Below are positions 2,313 through 42,347 of a DNA stretch of 51,623 bases, piece after piece (positions within the stretch are counted from its first letter, which is position 1; every line of letters begins with the position of its first letter). This stretch comes from an uncultured Clostridium sp. GTDB taxonomy: Bacteria; Bacillota; Clostridia; TANB77; CAG-508. The position numbers were made by a program, and so were the translations under genes. The stretch is from NCBI GenBank assembly GCA_947061115.1, contig CAMSMU010000002.1:1-51623 (forward strand), written 5' to 3'. The notes under the pieces were generated by a model. The model made no database searches. It was not told the origin of the DNA and saw only the letters and a list, made by a program, of their open reading frames with translations.

Positions 2313-2870
2313 ATGATTTCTTTTATTAGTTCATGGGCACAGCAAATAATATTTGCAGTAATAATTGGTGTAATAATACAAATGCTCATTCCAGAAGGTA
2401 AAAACAAAAAATATATTAAAGTTGTGATTGGAATATATGTACTTTTTACAGTAATAAGTCCAGTAGTTGGAAAAAATATAGATATAGACTTAAGTAAATA
2501 CAATATAGATATAAATAAAAATACAAATAAAGTTGAAACAAATACTCAAGAGAATATCAATGAAATATATGTTAGTAACTTAAAACAAGATATTACAGTA
2601 AAATTAAAAAATAGAGGATATGAATGTACATTAGTAGAATTAAAGACAAATGAAAATTATGAGGTAGAAAATATAAAAGTAAGTAATGTTTATAAAATCG
2701 AAGAAGATGATGATGCAGTAAATAAAATAGTAATAAATGAAATACAAATTGGCAGTGATTCTACAAAAAAACAAAAAGAAAAGGATATATCTAATAATGA
2801 AAAAATTGAACTCAAGAAATATTTAAGTGAAACATACGATGTTAAAGAAACAAACATAAGCATAAATTAA
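2313..2870 (+). CDS. spoIIIAF: Stage III sporulation protein AF
   Basis: 185 aa. The N-terminus MISFISSWAQQIIFAVIIGVIIQMLIP parallels B. subtilis SpoIIIAF MSFLTEWLTTIVLFILFAIVIDMLLP. Two TM helices. Confidence 0.82.
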   Translation: MISFISSWAQQIIFAVIIGVIIQMLIPEGKNKKYIKVVIGIYVLFTVISPVVGKNIDIDLSKYNIDINKNTNKVETNTQENINEIYVSNLKQDITVKLKNRGYECTLVELKTNENYEVENIKVSNVYKIEEDDDAVNKIVINEIQIGSDSTKKQKEKDISNNEKIELKKYLSETYDVKETNISIN

Positions 2871-12314: not shown

Positions 12315-12341
12315 AAAAAGACGCCTATAAAGCGTCTTTTT
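12315..12341 (+). terminator. Rho-independent terminator
   Basis: aaaaagacgc-ctataaa-gcgtcttttt hairpin plus T-run. Confidence 0.75.
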
Positions 12342-13740: not shown

Positions 13741-14835
13741 ATGTTGAAAAAAGATAATAATATAAAATCCAAAAAAGACATAAATAAAACACAAAAGAAC
13801 AAAAAATACAAAGCATTGAAAGTTATAGGAATAATAGTATTTGTTATATTAGTTATAATTTTGATAATATTTCTTATAGTGAATACATTTATAAATAGTA
13901 AATTAAACAAAATCAAATATGAAAATATTGCAATAGAGGAATTAGGCATAGATGAAAACGAGCAAATGAAAAAATTTAGAAACATAGCTATTTTAGGTCT
14001 AGATTCACAATATGATACGTATGAAACAGGATATAGAACAGATTGTATAATGATAGCAAGTATAAATGAAGATGAAAAAACGATGCAATTATATTCTATA
14101 TATAGAGATACATATGTCCAAATGGAGGAAAATGGTACAACAAAAATGGACAAGATAAACCATGCATATTATGGTGGAATAGAAAATACGCTAAAAACAA
14201 TAAATACAAACTTAGATTTAAACATTTCAGAATATGTAATTGCAGATTTTAATGCAGTGGTAGATGTAGTAGATGCAGTAGGTGGAATTGACATTAATAT
14301 AAATAATGAAGAAATAAAATTTATAAATAATTATATTGAATCTGTTTCTGAAATAGTAGGCAAATCAGCTGATAAAATAAATAAAACAGGAATTCAACAT
14401 TTAAATGGTGTTCAAGCAGTAGCATATTGCAGAATAAGATATACAACAGGATATGATTATAAGAGAACAGAAAGAATGAGAACTGTACTTGAAAAAATAG
14501 GAAATAAAGTAAAAACTCTTAGTTTAAGTGAAATGAATAATTTATTAGATATAATTTTACCAAAAATTCGTACAAATATTTCAGGTAAGGAAATATTAAA
14601 ACTTGCACCAAAAGTTCTTTCATTAGAACAAAGACAATCTTTTGGCTGGCCATATAAAACAAAAGGAGTATATTTAAGAGGAGATTTTTTTGGACCAGCA
14701 GCAACACTTGAAAGTAATGTACAAAAATTACACAAAGATGTGTATGGACAAAAAAATTACGAAGTACCAGAATATATAAAACAAATAAGTAATAAAATAG
14801 TTGAGGAAACAGGAGTTAAAAACGAATTACAATAA
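13741..14835 (+). CDS. LCP family glycopolymer transferase, copy 2
   Basis: Same architecture and motifs as copy 1 (RTDCIMIASI, VAYCRIRY, DYKRTERMRTVL). Confidence 0.85.
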   Translation: MLKKDNNIKSKKDINKTQKNKKYKALKVIGIIVFVILVIILIIFLIVNTFINSKLNKIKYENIAIEELGIDENEQMKKFRNIAILGLDSQYDTYETGYRTDCIMIASINEDEKTMQLYSIYRDTYVQMEENGTTKMDKINHAYYGGIENTLKTINTNLDLNISEYVIADFNAVVDVVDAVGGIDININNEEIKFINNYIESVSEIVGKSADKINKTGIQHLNGVQAVAYCRIRYTTGYDYKRTERMRTVLEKIGNKVKTLSLSEMNNLLDIILPKIRTNISGKEILKLAPKVLSLEQRQSFGWPYKTKGVYLRGDFFGPAATLESNVQKLHKDVYGQKNYEVPEYIKQISNKIVEETGVKNELQ

Positions 14836-14842
14836 GGGGGGG
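14836..14842. repeat. G7 homopolymer forming the SD of the priming glycosyltransferase
   Basis: taaGGGGGGGattacaGTG read directly. Confidence 0.9.
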
Positions 14843-14848
14843 ATTACA

Positions 14849-15553
14849 GTGGCTGTAGATAATGAAGCAATACTACTAAAAGATGAAGAAGAAGCTGAGA
14901 TAGGTGCTATCACTGCTAATGTCAAACAAAAAAATATTGCTTTTAGATTTATAAAAAGAACATTTGATATTATAGGAAGTATAATAGGAATTATACTAAT
15001 ATTACCTATTACAATGTTGGTTTTTATATTGAATATATGTACAGGAGAAGGAGGATCAATATTTTATACACAGACAAGAATAGGAAAAAATGGAAAACAT
15101 TTTAAAATGTATAAATTCAGAACAATGTGTAAAAATGCTGACAAGATCTTAAAAACTATACTAGAAGAAAATGAAGATTTAAAAAAAGAATTTGAAGAAA
15201 CCAGAAAACTAAAAAATGATCCTCGTGTTACGAAAACAGGAAAGATACTAAGAAAAACAAGTTTAGACGAATTTCCACAATTTATCAATGTATTAAAAGG
15301 AGATATGAGTTTAGTAGGACCAAGACCAGTAATAGATGGAGAAATAGAACTTTTCGGAATACATAAAAAAGAAATATTGAGTACAAAACCAGGAGTTACA
15401 GGGTATTGGGCTGTAAACGGAAGAAGCAATACATCATATGAAGAAAGAATAAAGCTTGAAACATACTATATTAAGAACATGTCAATAAAACTTGATATAA
15501 AAATTATATTAAAAACTATAGTATCATTTATAAAAAAGGATGGAGCAATATAA
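14849..15553 (+). CDS. Undecaprenyl-phosphate sugar phosphotransferase (bacterial sugar transferase, WbaP/CpsE-like)
   Basis: FKRTFDIIGS, KFRTM, DPRVTKTGKILRKTSLDEFPQF and GDMSLVGPRP motifs. GTG 14849 sits 6 nt after the G7 SD; the track's TTG at 14801 has no SD. Confidence 0.85.
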   Translation: MAVDNEAILLKDEEEAEIGAITANVKQKNIAFRFIKRTFDIIGSIIGIILILPITMLVFILNICTGEGGSIFYTQTRIGKNGKHFKMYKFRTMCKNADKILKTILEENEDLKKEFEETRKLKNDPRVTKTGKILRKTSLDEFPQFINVLKGDMSLVGPRPVIDGEIELFGIHKKEILSTKPGVTGYWAVNGRSNTSYEERIKLETYYIKNMSIKLDIKIILKTIVSFIKKDGAI

Positions 15554-20802: not shown

Positions 20803-21870
20803 ATGAAAAAAGTAGGAATATTAACAATTAATGATATGAAAAATGTTGGAAACAGATTACAAAATTATGCGACACAAGAAGTTCTAAAAAATTTAGGATG
20901 TGAAGCTGAAACAATACATAATTCAGAAAAGATGTATAATGGAAACTATTATAGAATAATAAGAAAAAAATTAGCAAATATATATAAAATAGTTTTTGGA
21001 AGAAAAAAATACATTAGACATTATTATTTTATGCAGTTTGAAAAAAATATTAGGCATTCAAAATATATGATAGATTACAAACATATTCCAAAAGAGTTAA
21101 ATAATGAGTATGATTATTTTGTAGCAGGAAGTGATCAAATTTGGAACCCAACATGGGGAAGAATGTCAGATATCGACTTTTTATCATTTGCTGATTATAA
21201 CAAAAGAATATCTTTTGCTGCAAGTATGGGAATAGGATATATCCCAAAAGACTTTGAAAATTTTTATAAAGAAAAGGTAAAAGAATTAAAAAATGTATCA
21301 GTTAGAGAAGATAAAGCAAAAGAACTTTTAGAAAATTTGACAGATAGGAAAGACATAGAAGTATTAATTGATCCAACAATGTTACTTAAAACAGAAGAAT
21401 GGGACAAGGTAGCAAAAAGACCAAAATTCTTAGATAAAATGACTCATAAAAATATAATAGCGACATACTTTTTGGGAAAATTGTCAGAAGAAAGAAAAAA
21501 AGAAATAAATAGAATTGCAGAAGAAAACGACTGTGATATTATAAATATGTTAGAAACAAAAATAGGGCCAAGTGAATTTTTATACTTAGAAAAAAATGCA
21601 TTCTTAATATGTACAGACTCTTTTCACTCAAGTGTATTTGCAATTTTATATAATAGACCATTTTTAGTATTTAACAGAGAAGATAAAGAAGAAAGCATGA
21701 ATTCAAGGCTAGAAACATTACTTAATAAATTTAAATTGGATGATAGGAAATATACTGGAGAAATAACCAAAAAACAGCTAGAATGTAATTATGAAGAATC
21801 ATATAAGATTTTAGAAGAAGAAAGAGAAAAATCATATAATTTCTTAAAGAAATCTCTAGAAATAAAATAA
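20803..21870 (+). CDS. Polysaccharide pyruvyl transferase family protein
   Basis: VGILTINDMKNVGNRLQNYATQEVL N-terminus, GSDQIWNP and a C-terminal TDSFHSSVFAI motif typical of the family. Confidence 0.75.
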   Translation: MKKVGILTINDMKNVGNRLQNYATQEVLKNLGCEAETIHNSEKMYNGNYYRIIRKKLANIYKIVFGRKKYIRHYYFMQFEKNIRHSKYMIDYKHIPKELNNEYDYFVAGSDQIWNPTWGRMSDIDFLSFADYNKRISFAASMGIGYIPKDFENFYKEKVKELKNVSVREDKAKELLENLTDRKDIEVLIDPTMLLKTEEWDKVAKRPKFLDKMTHKNIIATYFLGKLSEERKKEINRIAEENDCDIINMLETKIGPSEFLYLEKNAFLICTDSFHSSVFAILYNRPFLVFNREDKEESMNSRLETLLNKFKLDDRKYTGEITKKQLECNYEESYKILEEEREKSYNFLKKSLEIK

Positions 21871-21892
21871 AAAATTTTAGAAAGGAATAATA

Positions 21893-23452
21893 ATGAAAGA
21901 AACAAGTAGAACAAAAAATTCAATATTTAATGTTAGTTCTAACCTTGTAGTATATGTAATAAAAAATTTACTAAGCTTTGTTGCAAGAACAATATTTATA
22001 AAAGTATTAGGAGAAATGTATTTAGGAGTAAATGGCTTACTTACTAATGTATTATCAATGTTATCATTAGCTGAATTAGGATTAAGTTCAGCAATAAGTT
22101 TTGGACTATATAAACCACTTGCAGATAAAGATAATGAAAAAGTAAGTTCTCTTATGACATTTTTTAAAAGAGTATATGAAGTAATAGGAGTTATAGTATT
22201 AATATTTGGAATAGTAATATATTTCTTCCTTAATAAAATAATAAAAGAATATGATTCAATACCACAACTTAATATTATATATATATTATATTTAATTAAT
22301 ACAGTATCAACATATTATACAGCATATAAAGAGATACTTATAACAGCTGACCAGAAAGCATATAAATTAACAAAAATAAATATTACATTTACAGTATTAT
22401 TATACATATTCCAAATAATATCATTATTATTATTTAAGAATTTCATAGTTTATTTAATTGTTCAATTTTTTATGCAAATAGCTCAAAAAATTGTAACAAA
22501 CCTTTATATAACAAAAGAATATAAAGAAATAAATTTCAAAAGTAATAAAAAAATAGAAAAGAGTACGTTGGCAACAATTAAAAAAAATGTTAAAGCAATG
22601 ATGTTCCATAAAATAGGAAACTATTGTATTAATGGAACAGATAATATTATAATAAGTACAATGATAAATGTATCAACAGTAGGTATATACTCAAATTATA
22701 ATATGATTATTACAACAGTAAACGAAATTATATTAACAATATATAATAATATAACAGCTAGCTTTGGAAATTTATTAGTTGAAGAAGACAATAAAAAAAG
22801 CCTTGAAATATATAAAAAAATGGATTTTTTAGCTTTTATTATATACAGCTTTTTTGGAACTATATTTGGTTGTGCAATTAGTAGATTTATACAAATATGG
22901 ATAGGCGAAAGTTATATATTAGAGGCTAGTATTGTTATGCTATTATCATTTAGCTTTTTCTTTACTGGTATTAGAATACCATGCTCTGTAACAAAAAATG
23001 CAGCAGGATTGTATAATGAAGATAAATGGGTACCTATTATACAATCAATAATTAATTTGGTTTTATCTATAGCCTTAGCAAAATATATTGGACTGCATGG
23101 TGTTATATTAGGAACAATTGTCAGTGGAATATTACCTAATTTCTATAGGCCATATATTTTGTTTAAAAATATATTTAAAGAAAATTACACTAAATATCTA
23201 ATAAGTAATTATATTCCTTATATAATACACTTTATAATAATTTTAGGTATATCGTATATTATATGTAGCTTTATAAATATTTCAGGAGTAATAGGATTAA
23301 TATTATGTGTAATAATTGCAATGGTAATATATATAGTTTCTATATTAATATGTTTTAGAAAGACTGAAGAATTTACATTTTTCAAAGATATAATAAGAAA
23401 TATATTATCTAAAATATTAAACAAGATAAAACCAAATAGAAAAGAGGCATAA
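21893..23452 (+). CDS. wzx: Wzx-type polysaccharide flippase (MOP superfamily)
   Basis: 519 aa with 12 or more TM helices and cps-locus context. Confidence 0.8.
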   Translation: MKETSRTKNSIFNVSSNLVVYVIKNLLSFVARTIFIKVLGEMYLGVNGLLTNVLSMLSLAELGLSSAISFGLYKPLADKDNEKVSSLMTFFKRVYEVIGVIVLIFGIVIYFFLNKIIKEYDSIPQLNIIYILYLINTVSTYYTAYKEILITADQKAYKLTKINITFTVLLYIFQIISLLLFKNFIVYLIVQFFMQIAQKIVTNLYITKEYKEINFKSNKKIEKSTLATIKKNVKAMMFHKIGNYCINGTDNIIISTMINVSTVGIYSNYNMIITTVNEIILTIYNNITASFGNLLVEEDNKKSLEIYKKMDFLAFIIYSFFGTIFGCAISRFIQIWIGESYILEASIVMLLSFSFFFTGIRIPCSVTKNAAGLYNEDKWVPIIQSIINLVLSIALAKYIGLHGVILGTIVSGILPNFYRPYILFKNIFKENYTKYLISNYIPYIIHFIIILGISYIICSFINISGVIGLILCVIIAMVIYIVSILICFRKTEEFTFFKDIIRNILSKILNKIKPNRKEA

Positions 23453-23453
23453 T

Positions 23454-24407
23454 ATGAAAAAAGATTTAGTAACAATTATAACACCTTGCTATAATGGAGA
23501 AAAATACTTAAAAAGATATTTTGATTCAATAGTAAACCAAACATATAAAAATATAGAACTTATATTTATAAATGATGGTTCAAAAGATAAAACAGAAAGT
23601 ATAATAAAAGAATATGAAGGAAAAATAAAACAAAAAGGATACGAATTTAAATATATATATCAAGAAAATGCAGGACAAGCAGAAGCAGTAAATAAAGCAC
23701 TGCCAAATATATCTGGAGAATTTTTATATTGGATGGATTCAGATGATTACCTAGAGCCAGATAGTATAGAGAAACTTGTTAACTTTTTACAAAAAAATGA
23801 GAACTATAATATTGTACGAGGTAAAGTAAGAATAGTAAAAGATGGAAAAGAAATAAAAATAGGTAAGCCTAAAAAGAATGAAAGTGAATATATATTTGAA
23901 AATTATATTTTTGGAATAAATACATACTGTTATCCAGGAATATTCATGATTAGAATGGAAGAATTCGATAAAAATATAAAAGATAGAAAAATATATAGTC
24001 TAGTAGGAGTAGGGCAAAATTGGCAACTAATACTTCCAAATACATATAATCAAAAATGTGGTTTTGTAGATAGTATAGTATACAATTATAATATTATAGA
24101 AAATAGTCATTCAAGGACAGAACTAAAAAAGTTTGAAGATGAAATAAATAAAATTAATAGTGATATAGATGTTTTATATCACATACTAACTGATCTAAAA
24201 GTGTTAGATAAGTATAGAGAAAAGATTGAATTATTATATGATAGAAGTAGAATAAGAGTGGGATTAAAATACGATAAATATAATTATATAAATGAAATAC
24301 TAGAAAATGAAAAGAAAAATTATAAAAACTATAAAGAAAATAAAAAGTATTGGATATTAAAAAATAAGGCATTTTATAGATTATATAGAAAGGTAAAAAA
24401 TAGATGA
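23454..24407 (+). CDS. Family 2 glycosyltransferase
   Basis: VTIITPCYNGEKYL...IFINDGSKD...GQAEAVNKA...WMDSDD. Confidence 0.8.
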   Translation: MKKDLVTIITPCYNGEKYLKRYFDSIVNQTYKNIELIFINDGSKDKTESIIKEYEGKIKQKGYEFKYIYQENAGQAEAVNKALPNISGEFLYWMDSDDYLEPDSIEKLVNFLQKNENYNIVRGKVRIVKDGKEIKIGKPKKNESEYIFENYIFGINTYCYPGIFMIRMEEFDKNIKDRKIYSLVGVGQNWQLILPNTYNQKCGFVDSIVYNYNIIENSHSRTELKKFEDEINKINSDIDVLYHILTDLKVLDKYREKIELLYDRSRIRVGLKYDKYNYINEILENEKKNYKNYKENKKYWILKNKAFYRLYRKVKNR

Positions 24408-25534
24408 AGATTTTATTTATTGGAGGAACAGGAGTATTAAGTACAGACATAGTAAAACTATGTGTAAAAAAAGAATATGAAGTTTATATGATTAATAGAG
24501 GACACAATAATAAAAATGTAGATAAAAAAGTTAATATAATAATAGGAGATATTAATGATAAAGAATCTATAAAAGAAAAAATAGAAGGAATGACATTTGA
24601 TGTAGTAATAGATTTCTTAAGCTATATGGAAAATGAATTAAAAAGTAAATTAGAAATCTTTAATAACAAATGTGAACAATATATATTTATATCTTCTGCT
24701 ACAGTATATAGAAAAACTGAAAAAGGAGAGAGAATAACAGAAAAAACTGAAGCATCTAATCATGAATGGGATTATTCAGACAATAAATTAAAATGTGAAA
24801 AAGTATTAGAAGAAAATTATAAAAAGACAGGACAAAAGTATACAATAGTTAGACCATATATCACATATAGTGAAAAAAGAATACCAGATATGGCAATATC
24901 ACCAAAGAAATGGACTTTAGCTAATAGAATTATAAACCAAAAACCAGTACTATTATGGGATGATGGACAAGCAAGGTGTACTCTTACACAAACAAAGGAG
25001 TTTGCAGTAGGAATTGTAGGACTATTTTTAAATGAAAAAGCATATCAAGAAGTATTTCATATAACTACAGATCATACTTTAACATGGAAAGAAGCTACTA
25101 TATATATAGCAAAAGCATTAGAAACAGAACCTATTATTGCAAATGTACCAAGTGACTATATTATAAATGTAATGCCAGAATATAAAGGAGTACTTAAAGC
25201 AGATAAAGGTATTGATAGAGAATTTGATAATTCTAAAATAAAAAGTATAGTGCCAGAGTTTAATGCAAAAACAAAGTTTGAAGATGGAATTAAAGAAACA
25301 ATAGAATATTATAAAGAAGATACCAAAAGACAAGAAGTAGATTATCTTTGGGATGGTAGAGTTGATAGACTAATAAAAAAGTATTACAAGCAAAATAATA
25401 TAGAATATGATAAAAAAAGTCTATCAGTAAAGTCTTATAAAGAAGATATAAACTTAAAAAATAAGATTAAGTATTATATTGGAAAAAATATAGTATTATA
25501 TAAATTAATGCAAATTATTAGAAAGTTGGTGTAA
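24404..25534 (+). CDS. NAD-dependent epimerase/dehydratase (SDR) family protein
   Basis: KILFIGGTGVLS Rossmann motif and a YSDNK catalytic-type motif. Confidence 0.7.
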   Translation: MKILFIGGTGVLSTDIVKLCVKKEYEVYMINRGHNNKNVDKKVNIIIGDINDKESIKEKIEGMTFDVVIDFLSYMENELKSKLEIFNNKCEQYIFISSATVYRKTEKGERITEKTEASNHEWDYSDNKLKCEKVLEENYKKTGQKYTIVRPYITYSEKRIPDMAISPKKWTLANRIINQKPVLLWDDGQARCTLTQTKEFAVGIVGLFLNEKAYQEVFHITTDHTLTWKEATIYIAKALETEPIIANVPSDYIINVMPEYKGVLKADKGIDREFDNSKIKSIVPEFNAKTKFEDGIKETIEYYKEDTKRQEVDYLWDGRVDRLIKKYYKQNNIEYDKKSLSVKSYKEDINLKNKIKYYIGKNIVLYKLMQIIRKLV

Positions 25535-25537
25535 AAA

Positions 25538-26716
25538 TTGATAAACATAGAAAAAAAAGAACAATGTATGGGATGTAGTGCATGTTATAACATATGTCCT
25601 AAAAATGCTATAGAAATGTGTGAAGATAAAGAAGGATTTAAGTATCCAAAGATTAATAAAGAAAAATGTATAAACTGTGGACTATGTGAAAAGATATGCC
25701 CTATGATAAATGAAGCAAAAACTAATAATTTTGAAAAACCTAAGGTTTATGCTGCATGGAGCAAAAGTGAGAATATAAGATTAGATAGCACATCAGGAGG
25801 GATATTTTCAGAATTAGCAAATCAAATACTAAAAGAAGATGGATACATATGTGGTGCTGTATACAATAAAGAATGGAAAGTAGAACATCTACTTACAAAT
25901 GAAAAAAAAGAATTAGATAATATAAGAAGTTCAAAGTATTTGCAAAGTGATATAAATCTTATATATAGAGAAATAAAGGACAAGCTAACTGAAGGAATTA
26001 AAGTTCTATTTTGTGGTAGTCCTTGTCAAGTATCTGGACTATATAACTATTTAAATAAATCTTATGATAATTTGTATGCATGTGATTTTATTTGTAGAGG
26101 CATGAACTCTCCAAAAATATTTAAAATGTATATAAATAGTTTAGAAAATAAATATAAATCTAAAGTTAAAAAAATTAAATTTAAAAATAAAACATATGGA
26201 TGGCATAATTTTTCAACTAGAATAGACTTTGAAAATGGTAAGAAATACATAGGAATAAGATACATTGATTCCTTTATGGTGGGATACTTAAAATATACTG
26301 CATTTATGAGACCAGCATGTTATGAATGTAGATTTAAAGGTTTACCTAGAAAGGGAGATATAACATTAGCAGACTTTTGGGGAATAGAAAAAATAAATAA
26401 AACATTAGACAATGACATGGGAACATCTATGGTATTAATAAACTCAGAAAAAGGAAAAGAACTATTTGAAAAAGCAAAAGCTAATATAGAATCTACACAA
26501 ATAGATTCGGAAGATGTTTTCAATGATAATGTTTGTACATATAAGTCACCTGATAAGACAAAAGAAAGAGAACTTGTATTTGAAAATATTGATAAAATGA
26601 ATTGGGAAGAATTATGTAACAACTTTCTAAAACCACCAAAACTAAAATCTAGAATCAAGATATATATTAAAAGAAGTAAAATATATAGAAAATTAAAGAA
26701 AATAATAAAAAAGTAA
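25538..26716 (+). CDS. FrhB-family (coenzyme F420 hydrogenase/dehydrogenase beta-like) oxidoreductase with two N-terminal 4Fe-4S motifs
   Basis: CMGCSACYNICP and CINCGLCEKICP. The TTG start at 25538 is required to include the first Cys. Members of this family commonly accompany pyruvyl transferases in glycan loci. Confidence 0.7.
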   Translation: MINIEKKEQCMGCSACYNICPKNAIEMCEDKEGFKYPKINKEKCINCGLCEKICPMINEAKTNNFEKPKVYAAWSKSENIRLDSTSGGIFSELANQILKEDGYICGAVYNKEWKVEHLLTNEKKELDNIRSSKYLQSDINLIYREIKDKLTEGIKVLFCGSPCQVSGLYNYLNKSYDNLYACDFICRGMNSPKIFKMYINSLENKYKSKVKKIKFKNKTYGWHNFSTRIDFENGKKYIGIRYIDSFMVGYLKYTAFMRPACYECRFKGLPRKGDITLADFWGIEKINKTLDNDMGTSMVLINSEKGKELFEKAKANIESTQIDSEDVFNDNVCTYKSPDKTKERELVFENIDKMNWEELCNNFLKPPKLKSRIKIYIKRSKIYRKLKKIIKK

Positions 26717-26733
26717 TATTGGGAGAGAAATAA

Positions 26734-27315
26734 ATGGATAGAAGTATAGTAAATAGCTTAAAATACAGAAATAAACAAATTATATTTAGAAAGTATTCAA
26801 GAGTAACTATTGATAAGAGTGCTAATATTAGTGGAAATGGAAAAATAGCAATTGGAGATAAAGAAAATCCAAAATCAAAACAAGAAACAAGATTAAGCTT
26901 AGGAAAGAATAGCGAGTTAAATGTAAATGGAAACTTTAGTGTAGGATTTGGATCAGATATTAGAGTATTTAATAATGCAAAATTAGAAATTGGAAGCGGA
27001 TACTTAAATGCATTTGTTCAAATTGTTTGCTCTAAAAAAATATCTATAGGAAATAATGTTGCAATTGCCAGAGACGTAATAATTAGAGATACAGATGCAC
27101 ACGATATAATTGGAGAAGATCACAAAAAAGAAGCAGAAGTAAAAATAGGAAATCATGTTTGGATAGGAACTAGAGCAATTATAATGAAAGGAGTAACTAT
27201 TGGAGATGGTGCAATAGTAGGAGCAGGTGCAATAGTCACAAAAGATGTTCCAGAAAATTCAATAGTAGTAGGGGTCCCTGCAAAGGTAATAAAGGAAAAT
27301 ATAGAATGGAAGTAA
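26734..27315 (+). CDS. Left-handed beta-helix (hexapeptide) O-acetyltransferase
   Basis: [49 protein letters not shown]. Confidence 0.8.
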
Positions 27316-28511
27316 AAGAAAAAGCAAAGAAAAACCGTAGAACCCTTACAGCTGTACACACACACACACACACGGACGGTATATTTAATAAAAAGAAAAA
27401 TATAATAATTTGTGTAATAATAATATTTGTAATATTAATTTTAACAGTAATATATTCTTATAACTTTTCTAGTTACCCAATAATAGGAGGAGCAATTTCT
27501 TCATTTAATAAAGAATGTGAAGTAACAAGAGTAAAAGGAGTAGGCAATTTTCAAGAAAAAACGTATAAATGGGTAGGTGGAGTTTTAGGAAAAGATGGGT
27601 GTATATATGCAATACCAAATTGCTATGATAAAGTATTAAAGATAGATCCTGAAACTGAAAAAGTAAAAGAATTTGGTAATTTATCTAAAAATAAATTCAA
27701 ATATACTGGAGGCTGTACATACAAAGACAAAATATATGGATTTCCAAGAGCTAGTAATAAATTACTTGAAATAGATCCTAAAAAAGAAGAAGTAAAAGAG
27801 ATTGATTTAGCATTAAATTATGATGAAGATGGAAAAGACTACTATTATTCAGGCACATTATATAAAAATATAGCATATCTAGCACCTCGAAGCTCAAATC
27901 ACATATTAGCAATTAACTTAGATGATTATTCAACAAAGAAAATAGGAGAAGGAGTTGTACCAGAAAGTTATCAATATGATGGAGCAATTTTACATTATAA
28001 TGGTCTAATATACTTTTTTCCAAAAGTATATTCTCAAGTAATGGTGTTAAATCCAAAAACAGATGAAATAAAATTCATTGGCGATAAAATGAATGTACAA
28101 ATTTTTGGAGGAGCTATTGCTAAAAATGGAAATATATATTCTTTTACAGCTTATTCAGAGGGTGGAATAGTAAGAATAAATACTAAAGAAGAAAAAGTAG
28201 ATGTGATTTGCAAAGATACAGTAGAAACAGGGTTTTATGGAACAAAGTTAGCATCTAATGGAAAAATGTATGGAGTAGTAGGACATTCAAATAAAATATA
28301 TGAATTTGATCCAGAAACTGAAAAAGTAAAGGTAATAAGAGAATTAGTAAAATTAAATAATGTTGTAAGATGTGCTGGCGGAGTTTTAGATAGAAATGGA
28401 AATTTATGGTTTATACCAGCATATGGAGAAAAAATAATAAAATTAGAAATTGAACAAAAAGTGCCACTTAATAATAGAATTCTAGAATCAGTACAATTTT
28501 CTAATTACTAA
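27306..28511 (+). CDS. Membrane-anchored protein with about seven 45-aa propeller-like repeats, function unknown
   Basis: Short cytoplasmic tail, one TM helix ([18 protein letters not shown]), then repeats of the form GG-x4-(D/N)G-x-IY-x-P-x7-(L/V)-x-IDP-x-T-x-K-V. Confidence 0.6.
27356..27373. repeat. (AC)9 dinucleotide microsatellite inside codons 17-23 of the propeller-protein gene
   Basis: Direct read acacacacacacacacac, translated as HTHTHT. Confidence 0.95.
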
Positions 28512-28604
28512 TAGATTTTATAAATTATACAATTTATGAATATTGCATTAAAATATACAGTATGATAAAATATGAATAATTTAAATTTATATGAGAGGAA
28601 CACT

Positions 28605-29309
28605 ATGGAAGAAGAATTTGATATATTAGAGATACTAAAGATGTTTTGGAATAAAAGGATACAAATAATATTAATAATTTTATTTTTTATGATTATTGGA
28701 TATATATACACAGTATATTTTATACAACCACAATATAGATCTGAATCTACAATAATATTGGCCAATAATAATGAAAGTGAAAATTATAATGAAACATTAA
28801 CTCAAAGTGAAGTTATGTTAAATGATAAACTTGTAGCTACATATAGAGAACTTGCCAAAAGTAGTTCTGTTATAGAAGAAGTCATAGCAAACTTAAGACT
28901 ACAAGATAGATATACAGAAGAAAGTTTAGGAAAAAAGGTAGAAGTAACATTAGTTACTAATACTCAAGTTATAAAAATATCAGCAACAGACGAAAATCCA
29001 GAATTAGCAGCAAATATAACAAATGAAGTTACTAAAGTTTTTTCACAAAAAGTATCAGAAGTATATAATATAAATAATATAAAAGTTTTAAGTGATGCAG
29101 AACCTTCAAACGATCCAAGCAATATTAGTTTAAAGAAAAATTTATTCATGTTTTTTGGAATAGGATTTATAATATCTATAGTGTATGTAATAATATTAAA
29201 TACACTAGATTCAACTATAAAGAATAAAAAAGACATAGAAGATATAACTGGACTTAATGTATTAGCAGAAATACCAGTATTTGATATTGATAAGGAGAGA
29301 AAAAAATAA
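28605..29309 (+). CDS. Wzz/CpsC-type chain-length determinant (BY-kinase transmembrane modulator)
   Basis: EEEFDILEILKMFWNKR, a TM helix, YRSESTIIL and a second TM helix near the C-terminus. Start moved to ATG 28605 (SD GAGAGGAA). Confidence 0.8.
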   Translation: MEEEFDILEILKMFWNKRIQIILIILFFMIIGYIYTVYFIQPQYRSESTIILANNNESENYNETLTQSEVMLNDKLVATYRELAKSSSVIEEVIANLRLQDRYTEESLGKKVEVTLVTNTQVIKISATDENPELAANITNEVTKVFSQKVSEVYNINNIKVLSDAEPSNDPSNISLKKNLFMFFGIGFIISIVYVIILNTLDSTIKNKKDIEDITGLNVLAEIPVFDIDKERKK

Positions 29310-30211
29310 TGAAAGAAGAAGTAATATCTCATTTAGAACCAAAATCACCTATATCAGAAGTGTTTAGAGCATTAAGAACAAATTTACAATTTATGTATAA
29401 ATTAGATACATGCCAAACAATATTAATAACAAGCACAGTTCAATCAGAAGGTAAAAGCTTAGTTGCATCAAATTTAGCTACAACTTTTGCACAAGCTGGA
29501 AAAAGAACATTACTAATAGATTCAGATATGAGAAGACCAAGACAATATACAATATTTTCAACTAAAAGTTCACCAGGGCTTTCAAATTATTTATCTAATA
29601 TTATTAGTAATGAAAAGAAAGATAATCTAAGTGCAGCAGAGTGCATAGTAAAAACAGAAATAGAAAATTTGTCACTACTTCCAGCAGGAGATATACCTCC
29701 TAATCCATCTGAATTATTATTATCTTCTAGAATAGAAGAACTAATAAAAGAGGTATCAGAAAATTTTGATACTGTAATATTTGATGGTGCACCATGCCTG
29801 TTAGTTACAGACTCAGTAATTTTATCAAGATTAGTGAGCCAAACACTATTAGTTACAAGTTACAAAAATACTAAAAAGGATGATTTAAGAGAAGTAAAAA
29901 AGAGAATAGATAATATAGGTGGAAATATTGTAGGAGTAGTATTAAATAAAGTTGAAATATCAGCAAAAAAATATGATAGTAAATATTATTATTATTCTAA
30001 TACAGCAAAAGAAGAAATAGTAGAAGATAATAAAATTTCTATGAAAACAAATATAAAAGATGCTGAAAAAAATATAGAAAATACTAAAAATGAAATAGAG
30101 AAAGAGCAACAAGAAAATAAAGAAAACAGTATAGAAATGATAGATAACGAAAATGATATATCAGATAAAACAAAGGAAATATTAGCAGATATAGAAAAAT
30201 TTGAAGAATAA
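29309..30211 (+). CDS. CpsD/YwqD-type tyrosine autokinase (BY-kinase) with a long acidic C-terminal tail
   Basis: Walker A-like SEGKS, LLIDSDMRRP, VIFDGAP and the tyrosine cluster KYDSKYYYYS. Confidence 0.85.
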   Translation: MKEEVISHLEPKSPISEVFRALRTNLQFMYKLDTCQTILITSTVQSEGKSLVASNLATTFAQAGKRTLLIDSDMRRPRQYTIFSTKSSPGLSNYLSNIISNEKKDNLSAAECIVKTEIENLSLLPAGDIPPNPSELLLSSRIEELIKEVSENFDTVIFDGAPCLLVTDSVILSRLVSQTLLVTSYKNTKKDDLREVKKRIDNIGGNIVGVVLNKVEISAKKYDSKYYYYSNTAKEEIVEDNKISMKTNIKDAEKNIENTKNEIEKEQQENKENSIEMIDNENDISDKTKEILADIEKFEE

Positions 30212-30240
30212 AATATAGTGACAGTTATAAAGGAGAAAAA

Positions 30241-30999
30241 ATGGTAGATATACACTCACATATTCTTCCAGGAATAGATGATGGAGCAAGCAATATAAAT
30301 GAAACATTTGCAATGATACAAGAAGCCTGTGATGCTGGATTTACAGACATTTTTTCTACTTCACATTATATAGAAAATGAATACGAATTTAGCAAAATAG
30401 AAAGAGAACATATAATTAATGCAATAATGAAAAAAGTAGAAGAAAAAGGTATAAATATAAAAATACATGTAGGTGCAGAAGCATATATATCTAATAACTT
30501 ACCACAATTAATAAAAGACAAAAAAGTTGCAACATTAGGAAACAGTAGATATGTTTTATTTGAATTACCACTAAATGCTAAAGTGATGTACACAGAAAGT
30601 ATAATAGATGAGCTTATAAGGATGAATTTAATTCCAGTTATTGCACATCCTGAAAGATATGAAATGGTGAAAAAAGAACCTAATATAGTATTAGAATGGA
30701 TTGCAAGAGGAACTTTAATGCAATGTAATTATGGAGGTATAATAGGCATATATGGAAATGAAGCTCAAAATACTTTAGTGAAATTATTAAAAGCAGATGC
30801 AGTACATTTTTTAGGAACAGATTGTCATAGATCAAACAGTATATATACAAAAATGGAAGAAATAGAAAAAAGTTTTATAAAAGAAATAGGACAAGACAAA
30901 TTTAATATATTAAGTATAGAAAATCCTAAATCAGTTATAAATAATGAAAAAATACAAATACAAAAACCTAATATGATAAAAAATAGTTTTTTTAGTTGA
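30241..30999 (+). CDS. CpsB/YwqE-type PHP-family tyrosine phosphatase
   Basis: MVDIHSHILPGIDDGA N-terminus, IAHPERY and GTDCH motifs. Confidence 0.85.
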   Translation: MVDIHSHILPGIDDGASNINETFAMIQEACDAGFTDIFSTSHYIENEYEFSKIEREHIINAIMKKVEEKGINIKIHVGAEAYISNNLPQLIKDKKVATLGNSRYVLFELPLNAKVMYTESIIDELIRMNLIPVIAHPERYEMVKKEPNIVLEWIARGTLMQCNYGGIIGIYGNEAQNTLVKLLKADAVHFLGTDCHRSNSIYTKMEEIEKSFIKEIGQDKFNILSIENPKSVINNEKIQIQKPNMIKNSFFS

Positions 31000-34310: not shown

Positions 34311-35069
34311 TTGGGTTTTATTATAACAGCAATCAAAATAATATTTTTATTAGGATTTTTAATAATAATACATGAGGGTGGGCATTTTTTAGCTTGCAGA
34401 TTGTGTAAAGTTAAAGTTAATGAATTTGCTATTGGATTTGGACCAAAAATATGGTCCAAAAAAACAAAAGAAACAAATTATGAATTACGATTAATACCAT
34501 TTGGTGGATTTGTTAGTATGGAAGGAGAAGAAGAGCATTCTAACATAGAAGGCTCTTTTAGTAAGGCAAGCAGGCCTAAAAGATTCGCAATTATATGTGC
34601 AGGAGCTTTGGTTAATATTATTTTTGGTATATTGGCATATATGATATTGATATTTGTAATATATATGAATACTAACCAATCAGGAATTTTAGAATCAGTA
34701 TCATATGCTGCAAATAGTACACAAACACTTATATCTTCAATGTTTGAAGGTATTATAATGCTATTTACAGGAAAAGTTTCATTAAATGATATGGTAGGTC
34801 CTGTTGGAATTTCTCAAATGGTATCTCAAACATCAGGAATATCACAATTTATATACCTTTTATCAGTAATATCAATTTCATTAGGAATAACCAATTTATT
34901 ACCATTTGTACCACTAGATGGAGGCAAAGCTGTTCTTATAATAATTGAAGCAATTAGAAATAAGCCATTAAAGCAAGAAACAGAGTTAAAAATACAATCA
35001 ATAGGATTTTTGGTATTAATTATTTTCTCAGTATTTGTAGCATATAATGACATAGTTAGATTAGTTTAA
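34311..35069 (+). CDS. rseP: M50-family site-2 protease in the RseP/RasP position, with no PDZ domain
   Basis: HEGGHFLACR zinc motif, NLLPFVPLDGG and a TTG start with SD AGGAGG. At 252 aa there is no room for a PDZ insert. Confidence 0.8.
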   Translation: MGFIITAIKIIFLLGFLIIIHEGGHFLACRLCKVKVNEFAIGFGPKIWSKKTKETNYELRLIPFGGFVSMEGEEEHSNIEGSFSKASRPKRFAIICAGALVNIIFGILAYMILIFVIYMNTNQSGILESVSYAANSTQTLISSMFEGIIMLFTGKVSLNDMVGPVGISQMVSQTSGISQFIYLLSVISISLGITNLLPFVPLDGGKAVLIIIEAIRNKPLKQETELKIQSIGFLVLIIFSVFVAYNDIVRLV

Positions 35070-35120
35070 GATATCAAAAGATAAATAAATTGATTTAAAT
35101 AGATATTTTGGGGGCAAGAA

Positions 35121-40400: not shown

Positions 40401-40430
40401 AAATAAAAATATTAATAAAGGAAAGAATAA

Positions 40431-40484
40431 ATGAAAAACGCTATAATACTTGAGGCTGTATATATATATATATATATATCGTAA
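40431..40484 (+). CDS. Candidate 17-codon small ORF B (MKNAIILEAVYIYIYIS) containing a (TA)10 tract
   Basis: Paralog of the ORF at 6451-6501, with conserved promoter, SD-like GGAAAG and ATGAAAAAC start. Confidence 0.3.
   Translation: MKNAIILEAVYIYIYIS
40459..40479. repeat. (TA)10T microsatellite
   Basis: Direct read, 21 nt of alternating TA. Confidence 0.95.
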
Positions 40485-40637
40485 GGTTTAATAAAACAAA
40501 ATTATGTAGTTAAGGTAAAAACTAGTAATTTAGGGGCAGAGGGGCCAGTCAAAATTGGTTAAATATAGAAAATAATAAGTATAATATATTAAATAAAACA
40601 AATAATAATAAAAATATACAAAAGCAATTAATATTAA

Positions 40638-40712: not shown

Positions 40713-42347
40713 ATGAACAAATTAAAAAAAAATAGTAAAAATAAAGAGAATATAATAAATTATAAAATCTTTAGGGGCGATTGTCAGTCGCATACAGGAA
40801 TAACATTAATATCATTAATAGTAACAATAATAGTGTTACTGATTTTGGCAGGAATAGCAATAAATTTAAGCATAGGAGATAATGGACTATTTAATAGAGC
40901 AAAATCCGCAGTAGAAAAATATAAGATAGCAGCTAATGAAGAAAGTGAATTTTTTGAAGAATTAGATAAAAGCTTTGCAGTAGGGAATAGTAAATTACCA
41001 ATAAGAACACAGGTTATTGGTTATGATCAATATATTGATAATTGTAGTAATGGTATATCAGCAATTCAAATGTTTAATGGAGCATTAGGAGAAAATAAAT
41101 CTATAATAGAAAGAATTATATATCTAATTATTAGTGAAGACTATGATAAGAATGATGAAATTGTTATACAAGAATTGCAAGATCTAGAAAATGAATTTAA
41201 TCGTATATATGAAGAAAGTTGTTTTAAGTTTCATCAACCAATTAAAATTTATTATAATACAACTAAATATATAGAAATTTCATCAAATTTAGATCATATT
41301 AATATAGATTTTTCAACAAGTGAAACAATAAAGAATTCAGTTACAAAACTTCAAGGTGAAATGCAAAAAATTGATAATGAAATTAATGAACTCAATAAAA
41401 AAGAAGAAACGGTAAGAAAAATAATATCAGAATTAGAAATAAAAAATGAAGAATTATTAAAATATGATTATTTAGATAATATAGAATTAAAAGAAGTTGA
41501 ATTAAATGGAGAATTAGAAAGTGAAAAAATAGAATCAATTAACCAAATGTTAAAAAATATAAATGATATTATAAAATTGCAAAGTAGTTCAGAAGAAAAA
41601 CTGTCAGAAATATATAGTAAATTGTGTAGAATAAATGAGCTAATTTATAATGGATCTAATGATGAAATAATTGAAATAAAACAAGAAATTGATTTAATAG
41701 CAAATGAAATGAGAACAATAAATGAAACTTTTATAATAGATATCCAAGGAGAAAAAATAACTATTAAAATAAGAGATTTAAATACAAATTATTTAGGAAA
41801 AGATAATACTCCTTTATATTTAGATGTATCTAATAAAGAAAGATCACAAGAATCATTAGATAATGCAATTTATATTATTGATTGTGAACGAGCTAATTTA
41901 GGAGCTATATTAAATAGAGTAGACCATACAATTAAATATTATACAAGAATAAAGGATGTGTTGGAAAGTAGAATAAAAAATAAAGAAGATAGAAATAAAA
42001 GATTGGCAATTGTAAGTTTAGAAGAGATGCAATATTGTTTAGACAGGATCAGAACATTAATGATAAGAAGTCATAATGGAGTAAATTCAATAAAGGATAA
42101 GTATGGAATCAAGTTAGAGATAGATCAGATATTATTAGAAATAAATAGAATAGCAACGCATACTATGATAGAAAATGATACAGGTCTATTAAATGGTCAA
42201 TGGAATAAAAATATAAATGTAACACTTGAAAGTTTAGCTATAAAAGAAATAAATAATGATACAGAAGAAAATATTCAAGCAGGAATAAGAAAACTAGAAG
42301 AAAGTATTATTAAAATATATGAAAATCGTAAGGCATTAGCAAAATAA
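40713..42347 (+). CDS. Flagellin-homology protein with a pilin-like N-terminal hydrophobic segment. It lacks the flagellin D0/export regions.
   Basis: - Residues 29-50, GITLISLIVTIIVLLILAGIAI, are preceded by a basic leader.
- IRTQVIGYDQYIDNCSNGISAIQMFNGALGE resembles flagellin MRGQIRGL..ASKNSQDGISLIQTAEGAL.
- ERANLGAILNRVDHTI resembles flagellin RAxLGAxxNRLxxxI.
- SD AAAGGAGA lies upstream. Confidence 0.6.
   Translation: MNKLKKNSKNKENIINYKIFRGDCQSHTGITLISLIVTIIVLLILAGIAINLSIGDNGLFNRAKSAVEKYKIAANEESEFFEELDKSFAVGNSKLPIRTQVIGYDQYIDNCSNGISAIQMFNGALGENKSIIERIIYLIISEDYDKNDEIVIQELQDLENEFNRIYEESCFKFHQPIKIYYNTTKYIEISSNLDHINIDFSTSETIKNSVTKLQGEMQKIDNEINELNKKEETVRKIISELEIKNEELLKYDYLDNIELKEVELNGELESEKIESINQMLKNINDIIKLQSSSEEKLSEIYSKLCRINELIYNGSNDEIIEIKQEIDLIANEMRTINETFIIDIQGEKITIKIRDLNTNYLGKDNTPLYLDVSNKERSQESLDNAIYIIDCERANLGAILNRVDHTIKYYTRIKDVLESRIKNKEDRNKRLAIVSLEEMQYCLDRIRTLMIRSHNGVNSIKDKYGIKLEIDQILLEINRIATHTMIENDTGLLNGQWNKNINVTLESLAIKEINNDTEENIQAGIRKLEESIIKIYENRKALAK

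Follow-up and report, generated by a model that had tools for sequence, protein, structure and literature searches.

A length-variable AC tract in a capsule-operon gene of an uncultured gut Clostridium and the dinucleotide leader cassette to which it belongs

The stretch of DNA analyzed here (hereafter the window: 51,623 nucleotides of contig CAMSMU010000002.1, assembly GCA_947061115.1, from an uncultured Clostridium sp.) carries a perfect (AC)9 tract at the 5' end of a capsule-operon gene that encodes a membrane-anchored beta-propeller protein. The length of this tract differs among public mouse-gut metagenomes on otherwise identical backgrounds. We consider it probable that the tract is a hypermutable, slipped-strand frameshift switch that turns the propeller gene ON and OFF. 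An earlier sequence-only reading of this DNA had proposed such a contingency locus, which is now supported both by the logic of the sequence and by natural polymorphism on identical backgrounds. Moreover, the tract belongs to a conserved 5' cassette, a context that goes beyond this earlier reading.

The AC tract, its reading frames and its length variants

The tract is 18 nt long, as read from the sequence (...AGAACCCTTACAGCTGT(AC)9GGACGGTATATTTAATAAAAAG...) and as reported by Tandem Repeats Finder, which finds a perfect 9-copy array at 27356-27373. The GC content of the window is about 25%, and 0 of 100 dinucleotide-preserving shuffles of it contained (AC)6. The six occurrences of (AC)4 in the window, for 0.44 expected, all lie within the tract. 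The latter begins at the third base of codon 17 (GTA) and ends at the second base of codon 23 (ACG) in the open reading frame (ORF) located at 27306..28511; it encodes V17-H-T-H-T-H-T23, upstream of the transmembrane segment (residues ~33-52; AlphaFold helix 24-54).

Allele simulation indicates the effect of a change in tract length on translation. Loss of one unit gives GGA CGG TAT ATT TAA, with a stop at 27386-27388 after 4 codons, and gain of one unit leads to a TAA at 27403-27405 after 10 codons. The frame is kept with 6, 9, 12 or 15 units, the other lengths leaving ORFs of 24-35 amino acids (aa). Furthermore, a codon scan of the gene found no in-frame ATG, GTG or TTG between the tract and codon 246. 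Off-frame lengths should therefore yield no anchored propeller, since translation would stop prematurely and no start codon would rescue it. On an 8-unit assembly, a gene caller recovered only a C-terminal piece of 156 aa (P0040). The sequence-only reading had claimed that such a repeat is unexpected in AT-rich DNA, that it lies in codons 17-23 (HTHTHT) ahead of the transmembrane helix, that no alternative start follows and that the shifted frames stop after 4 codons (minus one unit) and about 10 codons (plus one unit); the shuffles, the ORF with the AlphaFold helix, the next in-frame start being codon 246, and the allele simulation bear out these claims.

The runs that contain the locus are public mouse-gut metagenomes, in which alleles were read from assembler consensus contigs. 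On flanks identical to those of the window, the tract has 9 units in X1, X2, X6, X9, X7/X8 and X24, 8 units in X4, X10 and X12, 7 in X3, 6 in X5, 10 in X26 and at least 13 in X35, whose contig continues with ACACACACA and then ends. Three of these runs (X3, X5 and X35) come from a single study, yet they carry 7, 6 and at least 13 units. A sister lineage (lineage B; X13, X14, X17, X18, X19 and X34) differs from the window by G27374A, G27375C and C27493T and has 11 units in X13, X14, X17, X19 and X34 and 10 units in X18. These 11 units correspond to the total length and frame of the window because ACAC replaces the GGAC that follows the tract in the window; judging from these bases, the (AC)9-GG-AC of the window may be an interrupted derivative of an uninterrupted (AC)11. 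A fixed repeat number, which the sequence-only reading had named as the observation that would speak against a switch, is not what the comparison of strains and metagenomes gives: 6, 7, 8, 9, 10 and at least 13 units occur, with 10 or 11 in the sister lineage, and the lengths differ on identical flanks.

Apart from the tract, the alleles are almost indistinguishable. The X4 contig (8,208 nt) corresponds to positions 20922-29131 of the window minus one AC unit and is otherwise identical. Between alleles there are 0-4 single-nucleotide polymorphisms (SNPs) per 7-8 kb, and the rest of the gene is intact in each of them. A comparison over 20 kb, a noisy one in which the X3 and X5 contigs were lost at the 95% threshold and only the X4 and X10 contigs were usable, shows the tract as the sole within-gene indel, the other indels being two intergenic single bases at 35089 and 35106. 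In X7/X8, X11, X17 and X18, the assembly graph breaks exactly at the tract, where the depth in X7/X8 falls from 9.1 to 4.2; this hints at mixed alleles, though the samples are metagenomes. The sample label 'Organism A' was considered as designating a bacterium, which would make the runs isolates. This was rejected, as the label is also borne by huge single-cell RNA runs and probably designates the host; all runs were therefore treated as metagenomes and copy number from unitig depth was dropped.

Sequencing, polymerase chain reaction (PCR) stutter or assembly artefacts at a low-complexity site are a very improbable source of these length differences. Dinucleotide repeats do stutter in PCR and some assemblies break at the tract, but the 18-nt tract is shorter than the assembler word, so that single words span the tract and its flanks. 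Moreover, each allele is the consensus of a contig at a depth of 6-340, the differences reach at least 3 units, the same allele is found in independent studies (8 units in X4, X10 and X12) and no other within-gene indel occurs over the 20 kb.

The locus thus combines the features of simple sequence repeat contingency loci at 27356-27373: a non-triplet repeat in the 5' coding region, premature stops in both shifted frames and length polymorphism. According to the mechanism that we propose, replication would add or remove AC units by slippage, presumably in a reversible manner, and move the ATG in or out of frame with the gene body. Tracts of 6, 9 or 12 units would give the full protein of 399-403 aa and any other length would end translation 4 or 10 codons past the tract. 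An effect on expression, a glycan phenotype and a selective value of switching would be the presumed consequences.

Several points weigh against this switch. All population alleles come from assembler consensus contigs, and switching within a clone, its rate and its reversibility are presumed. The ribosome-binding site is weak and the start codon at 27306 is a presumed one, read from the sequence. The AC locus has no promoter and no terminator of its own, unlike most of its cassette relatives. Among the informative runs, 12 of 18 are in frame and 6 of 18 out of frame at consensus, a tally that is descriptive only, because the runs share studies and facilities. In addition, the consensus OFF alleles show that the gene is dispensable in vivo, and a decaying gene would look alike. 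The tract could accordingly be a hypermutable but neutral microsatellite whose gene is dispensable or decaying, and which varies without selection for switching; we regard this as improbable. The six runs with an out-of-frame consensus are compatible with neutrality, as are the nearest homologues, which function without any repeat, and the fact that no phenotype is known for the propeller gene. However, the cassette design, with one long frame, two short ones and a tail that supplies the stops, recurs at more than 100 loci. Furthermore, the gene is otherwise intact in all alleles, with no other indels and the few SNPs mentioned above, and in-frame alleles (6 and 9 units; 11 in lineage B) are found in 12 of the 18 runs, against one third expected at random.

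A leader cassette shared by many loci

The cassette that contains the AC tract consists of a ribosome-binding site, an ATG, a leader reading ..[E/K/R]-T-[L/V]-x-x-[V/L], a dinucleotide tract and a TTTAATAAA-type tail. Of the three frames of the tail, one is long (x-N/F-L/I-x-K...) and the other two run into a stop within a few codons. The family is defined by a Shine-Dalgarno-like site and an ATG located 2-13 codons ahead of a T-R-R-AACC-N11 core that abuts the tract, and this arrangement is found at 27306. The core of the window (27338-27355) is an exact match to the pattern (row L001), and 8 of its 11 unconstrained (N11) positions equal the family consensus CTTGGGGCTGT. In the tail, TTTAATAAA (27384-27392) reads F-N-K in the productive frame and supplies the TAA of the minus-one-unit frame (27386-27388). 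Tails of this type are also found in the cassette relatives and in a second cassette of the window, which has a (TA)n tract. The AC tract would not have arisen in place but would have arrived within this conserved modular 5' cassette.

The first trace of the family was provided by short contigs from mouse metagenomes that match the 15 nt preceding the tract, differ upstream and each carry a Shine-Dalgarno site and an in-frame ATG. The possibility that contigs matching 27341-27373 are mouse (AC)n microsatellites was rejected, their flanks being AT-rich with a Shine-Dalgarno site and an in-frame ATG. The same metagenomes also contain leaders in which an identical core follows another upstream sequence, one or more of these leaders having a match on a phage contig. 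The scan of the metagenome contig collection gave no match to the exact leader of the window.

The pattern T-R-R-AACC-N11-(AC)6 was then searched in one genome per species, which gave at least 120 matches; the family figures that follow are those among the matches listed. Nearly all of these come from uncultured gut Clostridia, as metagenome-assembled genomes obtained from rabbit, human, chicken and ruminants, with up to 6 AC cassettes in a single genome assembly. A few matches, in genomes of Bacteroidota or of environmental origin, look fortuitous. Within the unconstrained N11, low-GC loci share CTTG-N-GG-CTGT, and conservation reaches 0.93 for T at -10, 0.88 for T at -9, 0.94 for G at -8 and 0.98 for T at -1. 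An in-frame ATG lies within 15 codons upstream in 100 of 119 matches, 88 of these 100 also having a Shine-Dalgarno-like site. The encoded N-terminus is M-x(1-12)-[A/L]-[E/K/R]-T-[L/V]-x-x-[V/L]-(HT)n and the tract has 6-28 units (median 11). No Rfam family was matched in the window or in seven cassette loci.

Alphaproteobacteria from gut and termite gut (Ca. Enterousia and others) apparently carry the cassette too, in the form GCTGAAACC-CGCAGAAACCT-(AC)9-20, mostly fused to secreted or signal-peptide proteins. There are up to 4 such loci per assembly (L004, L008, L013, L029, L043, L048, L056, L059, L065, L072, L088, L094, L097, L105 and L114). Their likeness, as seen in the sequences, is partly forced by the search pattern and may be homologous or convergent.

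Cassettes are wired to the downstream gene in different ways. Of the 86 cassettes followed by 200 nt or more of sequence, 52 consist of a short ORF followed by a hairpin and a T-run, 26 are fused to a long ORF and 8 are unclear. The AC locus of the window is of the fused type, its leader being continuous with the 401-aa ORF; no separate short leader ORF was found at 27306 and no hairpin with T-run follows the tract in the window AC locus or in L001. Hairpins with a free energy of -10 kcal/mol or lower (median -23) follow 47 short-ORF cassettes. In 46 of these 47, the end of the long frame falls inside or past the hairpin, and of the 94 short frames (two per cassette), 90 terminate more than 12 nt ahead of the stem. 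The assembled frame is the long one in 11 of the 47 attenuator-type and 10 of the 26 fused cassettes, low shares that are as expected of switches and not of fixed genes.

Classical his and thr attenuators use runs of His or Thr codons. Since the leader encodes alternating His and Thr, the (HT)n peptide might itself be functional, in metal binding or as a His/Thr-sensing attenuator, and be tuned by its length. This is hardly plausible: observed changes are not multiples of three (7, 8 and 10 units), the frame agrees with the long ORF in the minority of relatives just given, the (TA)n tract of the sister cassette encodes Tyr-Ile, and the regulated genes are surface genes, not genes of His or Thr biosynthesis. 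His/Thr attenuation was rejected on these grounds.

The genes located past the terminators mostly encode type IV pilin-like proteins (..GITLIALV..LTGENGI..) or anchored surface proteins (LRR/BspA, Ig-like, MucBP, Flg_new). Targets of fusion include two Acyl_transf_3 proteins, YfhO, Methylase_S (hsdS) and MaoC. The cassette-controlled genes are typical contingency-type surface or restriction-modification genes. Direct fusions at L025:3146-3703, L030:3941-5152, L110:4194-5249 and L121:5135-7918 concern a type I restriction specificity protein (Methylase_S), two Acyl_transf_3 O-acyltransferases and a 928-aa YfhO; in function, these fusions come nearest to the capsule-gene fusion of the window.

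Viral contigs from IMG/VR (L230-L247), 34-37 kb in size, contain about 14 true (AC)n cassettes among 18 matches (for instance L231:1789-1818 and L234:6948-6977). In L231, L241 and L242, the stop of the long frame overlaps the start of the next ORF (ATGA), and this ORF encodes 109-120 aa with a conserved N-terminus (MIPQ..TK) and a variable C-terminus. By its sequence, this ATGA overlap looks like a translational-coupling arrangement. Furthermore, a loose contig end (paralogue) in the mouse run X9 has the same sequence as that found upstream in the L234 and L246 leaders.

The second cassette of the window, a (TA)10 version at 40431-40514 (given from 40417 in Table 1), carries the CTTGAGGCTGT box and the TTTAATAAA tail of the family; 19 of its 28 leader bases are identical in the AC cassette, and a flagellin-like gene (40713..42347) follows about 230 nt downstream. 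The present frame of this cassette stops at 40482-40484 and its long frame ends near 40514. Contigs break at this cassette in 4 of the 4 runs examined, with one contig in each of X1 and X4 lacking one unit. In addition, 38-109 contigs per run match the cassette, at a depth 20-200x that of the flanks. A metagenome scan for CTTGNGGCTGT(AT)6 gave 106 loci (L124-L229) with highly uniform leader, tail and hairpin: the leader is GCTGAAAGC-CTTGAGGCTGT, the tail begins with CGTAAGATTTAATAAAATA... and an ACATAG-loop-CTATGT hairpin with a T-run follows. At least 21 TA-cassette contigs of similar coverage come from a single assembly, ERZ1643246. The tract has 10 units, corresponding to the short (OFF) frame, in 60 of 108 cases, 9 units in 23 and 8 units in 13. 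Arithmetically, the long frame corresponds to 9 or 12 units, and 20 of 85 cassettes have it. The locus L089 (~2371-2386, minus strand 3075) has a hybrid tract, (AT)8(AC)3, behind a normal AC-type leader, which suggests that the TA and AC forms interconvert.

A full-text literature search, which did not cover subscription journals, brought up no account of a leader cassette with an (AC)n or (TA)n tract, and the paper on TANB77 pilins does not mention repeats or phase variation. The conserved leader and tail that the cassettes share, the three outputs of a single module, the many copies and the occurrence on phage contigs seem to have no described counterpart. Taking together small-genome gut Clostridia, apparently gut Alphaproteobacteria, and phages, with in-frame fusion, ribosome-dependent anti-termination and ATGA coupling as interchangeable outputs, we lean slightly towards viewing the cassette as an undescribed, modular and horizontally mobile module placed before tens of surface, glycan-modification and restriction-specificity genes per genome.

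The switched gene and its capsule operon

The product of the switched gene would have its Lys/Arg-rich tail, with (HT)3, in the cytoplasm, cross the membrane by one helix and carry an extracytoplasmic beta-propeller of seven blades. The AlphaFold model (26 homologues; pLDDT 90.3) has residues 1-22 disordered, a helix at 24-54 and then the seven-bladed propeller. With Foldseek, the best folds in the PDB are those of virginiamycin B lyases (2qc5 and 2z2p; E 1.6e-13, target-normalised TM-score 0.82-0.85, 14-15% identity). The product is thus predicted to share the seven-bladed propeller fold of Vgb-like lyases, a likeness of fold alone. The features of both cassettes and of the neighboring genes are listed in Table 1.

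Table 1. Coordinates of the features discussed in the text
Feature	Position	Strand	Evidence or sequence
AC tract (AC)9	27356..27373	+	Sequence, frame simulation, length variants 6 to at least 13 units in public runs
Cassette core TAGAACCCTTACAGCTGT, encodes R-T-L-T-A-V, directly 5' of tract	27338..27355	+	Matches T-R-R-AACC-N11
Cassette tail GGACGGTATATTTAATAAAAAG...	27374..27405	+	Read from sequence and frame simulation
Switched gene, 401 aa, DUF6923	27306..28511	+	ORF; Pfam DUF6923 7.8e-13; homologues 63-42% identity
Shine-Dalgarno-like AAAGGA, 9 nt ahead of ATG	27291..27296	+	Read from sequence; weak
Transmembrane anchor, residues ~33-52	27402..27461	+	Hydrophobic stretch; AlphaFold helix 24-54
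Beta-propeller domain, residues 73-382 (predicted)	27522..28451	+	AlphaFold, Foldseek
Hexapeptide-repeat acetyltransferase, upstream operon gene	26734..27315	+	ORF; Pfam Hexapep 8e-11
Wzz-type chain-length determinant, CpsD-like tyrosine kinase, CpsB phosphatase	28572..30999	+	Pfam Wzz, AAA_31/CbiA, CpsB_CapC
(TA)10 cassette	40417-40514, tract 40459-40479		AAAGGAAAG, ATG AAA AAC GCT ATA ATA CTT GAG GCT GT, (AT)10, CGTAAGGTTTAATAAAAC...

The glycan-locus, surface-cluster setting assigned to the gene by the sequence-only reading proved correct, the gene lying inside a Gram-positive-type capsule operon. The upstream part of this operon encodes two LytR-CpsA-Psr proteins, glycosyltransferases, a pyruvyl transferase, a flippase, an epimerase, an FrhB-like protein and the acetyltransferase; the propeller gene, Wzz, the CpsD-like kinase and CpsB follow the latter in this order. 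The acetyltransferase gene stops at 27313-27315 and overlaps the start of the switched gene by 10 nt. Homologues with 61-63% identity are syntenic, between an acetyltransferase gene and wzz, in other capsule loci (L122 and L123), and a metatranscriptome contig (X27) spans part of the gene. The propeller gene is a real and conserved member of the capsule operon. Since the AC tract was not found in the syntenic homologues (L122 and L123), it is a lineage-specific addition to a tolerant cytoplasmic tail.

Terminator-like sites in the capsule region are located only at 12315, 22070 (weak) and 31022, the terminator scan of the window finding none between 12341 and 31022 except the weak one. Polarity on wzz-cpsD-cpsB may thus follow from the OFF state. 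It is possible, but rather unlikely, that this polarity, and not the loss of the propeller, is the main effect of the switch. An early stop would leave 1.1 kb of untranslated mRNA inside a long operon without terminator-like site before 31022, directly followed by three assembly genes encoding Wzz, the CpsD kinase and the CpsB phosphatase. However, wzz is preceded by a 60-nt spacer and could initiate independently, and the cassettes of the relatives usually control just the gene directly after them.

The host is a low-GC Firmicute carrying PolC. Its relatives are SpoIIIA-bearing Clostridia of about 1.5 Mb with 88-89% YchF identity, one related genome having about 1.55 Mb. Relatives with 88% YchF identity (L248-L250) keep the order SpoIIIA, TsaD-GNAT, LonC, YchF, ..., LytR and then have different capsule genes; the capsule locus is therefore a variable island at a fixed chromosomal site. 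No repeats were found in the first 10 kb of the capsule loci of these relatives.

Three other observations concern the same region and its surroundings. The assembly graphs of X2 and X6 have a further break near 27289-27325 (region 27270-27340), and the 3' end of the acetyltransferase gene is 2.5x deeper than the propeller gene (430 vs 171 and 845 vs 336, respectively). This suggests co-resident strains or loci with the upstream gene in common and different downstream sequence, i.e. mosaicism of the capsule locus. A G7 run at 14836-14842, unusual at 25% GC, is located at the junction of the second LytR-CpsA-Psr gene (ending at 14835) and an ORF at 14801..15553 and could be another variable tract. 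Finally, an intergenic patch just upstream of polC (35121), at 35061-35106, is locally divergent amid near-identical genomes: it contains a cluster of SNPs and the 1-nt deletions at 35089 and 35106, all common to X3, X4 and X10.

Comparison with known repeat switches and significance

In Helicobacter pylori, CT-dinucleotide repeats within the 5' coding sequence of hopZ, oipA, babA/B and sabA shift the frame by slipped-strand mispairing, and these outer-membrane proteins are expressed only in strains with an open frame (PMC12915409). Likewise, the AC locus has a dinucleotide repeat in the 5' leader part of a surface gene. It differs from the H. pylori switches by its AC/TA unit, its occurrence in Gram-positive spore-forming gut Clostridia and its target, a propeller encoded by a capsule operon, and we claim no sequence homology. 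In addition, the conserved leader box and tail of the cassette are common to many unrelated genes and to phages, and non-fused wirings exist too.

Expression of pil1 in Streptococcus gallolyticus depends on a leader peptide with a GCAGA repeat, of which only the long forms let the ribosome block terminator formation (Danne et al. 2014, PMC3894217). Most cassette relatives resemble this system, having a repeat-bearing short leader ORF of which one frame reaches a terminator located before a pilus or surface gene. Unlike pil1, the AC locus of the window is fused to its gene and has no terminator. Moreover, the unit of the cassette family is a dinucleotide and not a pentanucleotide, there are tens of copies per assembly with a conserved leader, and the pilins regulated by cassettes are type IV pilin-like, not those of sortase pili.

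A study on Campylobacter jejuni describes intragenic simple repeats that switch single polysaccharide-modifying genes of the capsule locus and generate surface heterogeneity (PMC8437040). The AC tract is likewise an intragenic repeat in a capsule-locus gene. Unlike the AC cassette, the repeats of this Gram-negative pathogen are poly-G homopolymers in capsule and lipooligosaccharide genes and have no conserved leader cassette. The opa genes of Neisseria are paralogous surface genes that each have a CTCTT repeat in a conserved leader-peptide region and are independently ON or OFF. The cassette resembles them in placing a repeat in the conserved leader of many surface genes. However, the opa leader belongs to one protein family, whereas the cassette precedes unrelated genes and acts via terminators and coupling as well.

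What is known of phase variation in gut commensals comes mainly from DNA inversions in Bacteroides and Clostridioides, and what is known of repeat-driven switching mainly from a few pathogens. Here, a naturally polymorphic repeat that probably acts as a switch is found in the capsule operon of an uncultured mouse-gut Clostridia species, and a simple sequence signature finds hundreds of similar candidate switches in gut metagenomes. The targets of this signature are genes for pilin-like and adhesin-like proteins, for polysaccharide acyltransferases, for a glycosylation protein of the YfhO type and for the specificity subunit of a type I restriction system, and some lie on phage contigs. If these loci do switch, heterogeneity of the surface and of phage receptors in these bacteria, which are abundant though uncultured, would be measurable straight from repeat counts in reads, and switching would account for many gene calls in their assembled genomes that seem 'frameshifted' or truncated. 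The cassette would then be a compact natural ON/OFF module, and commensal anaerobes would hold a phase-variable gene set comparable to that of Neisseria or Campylobacter.

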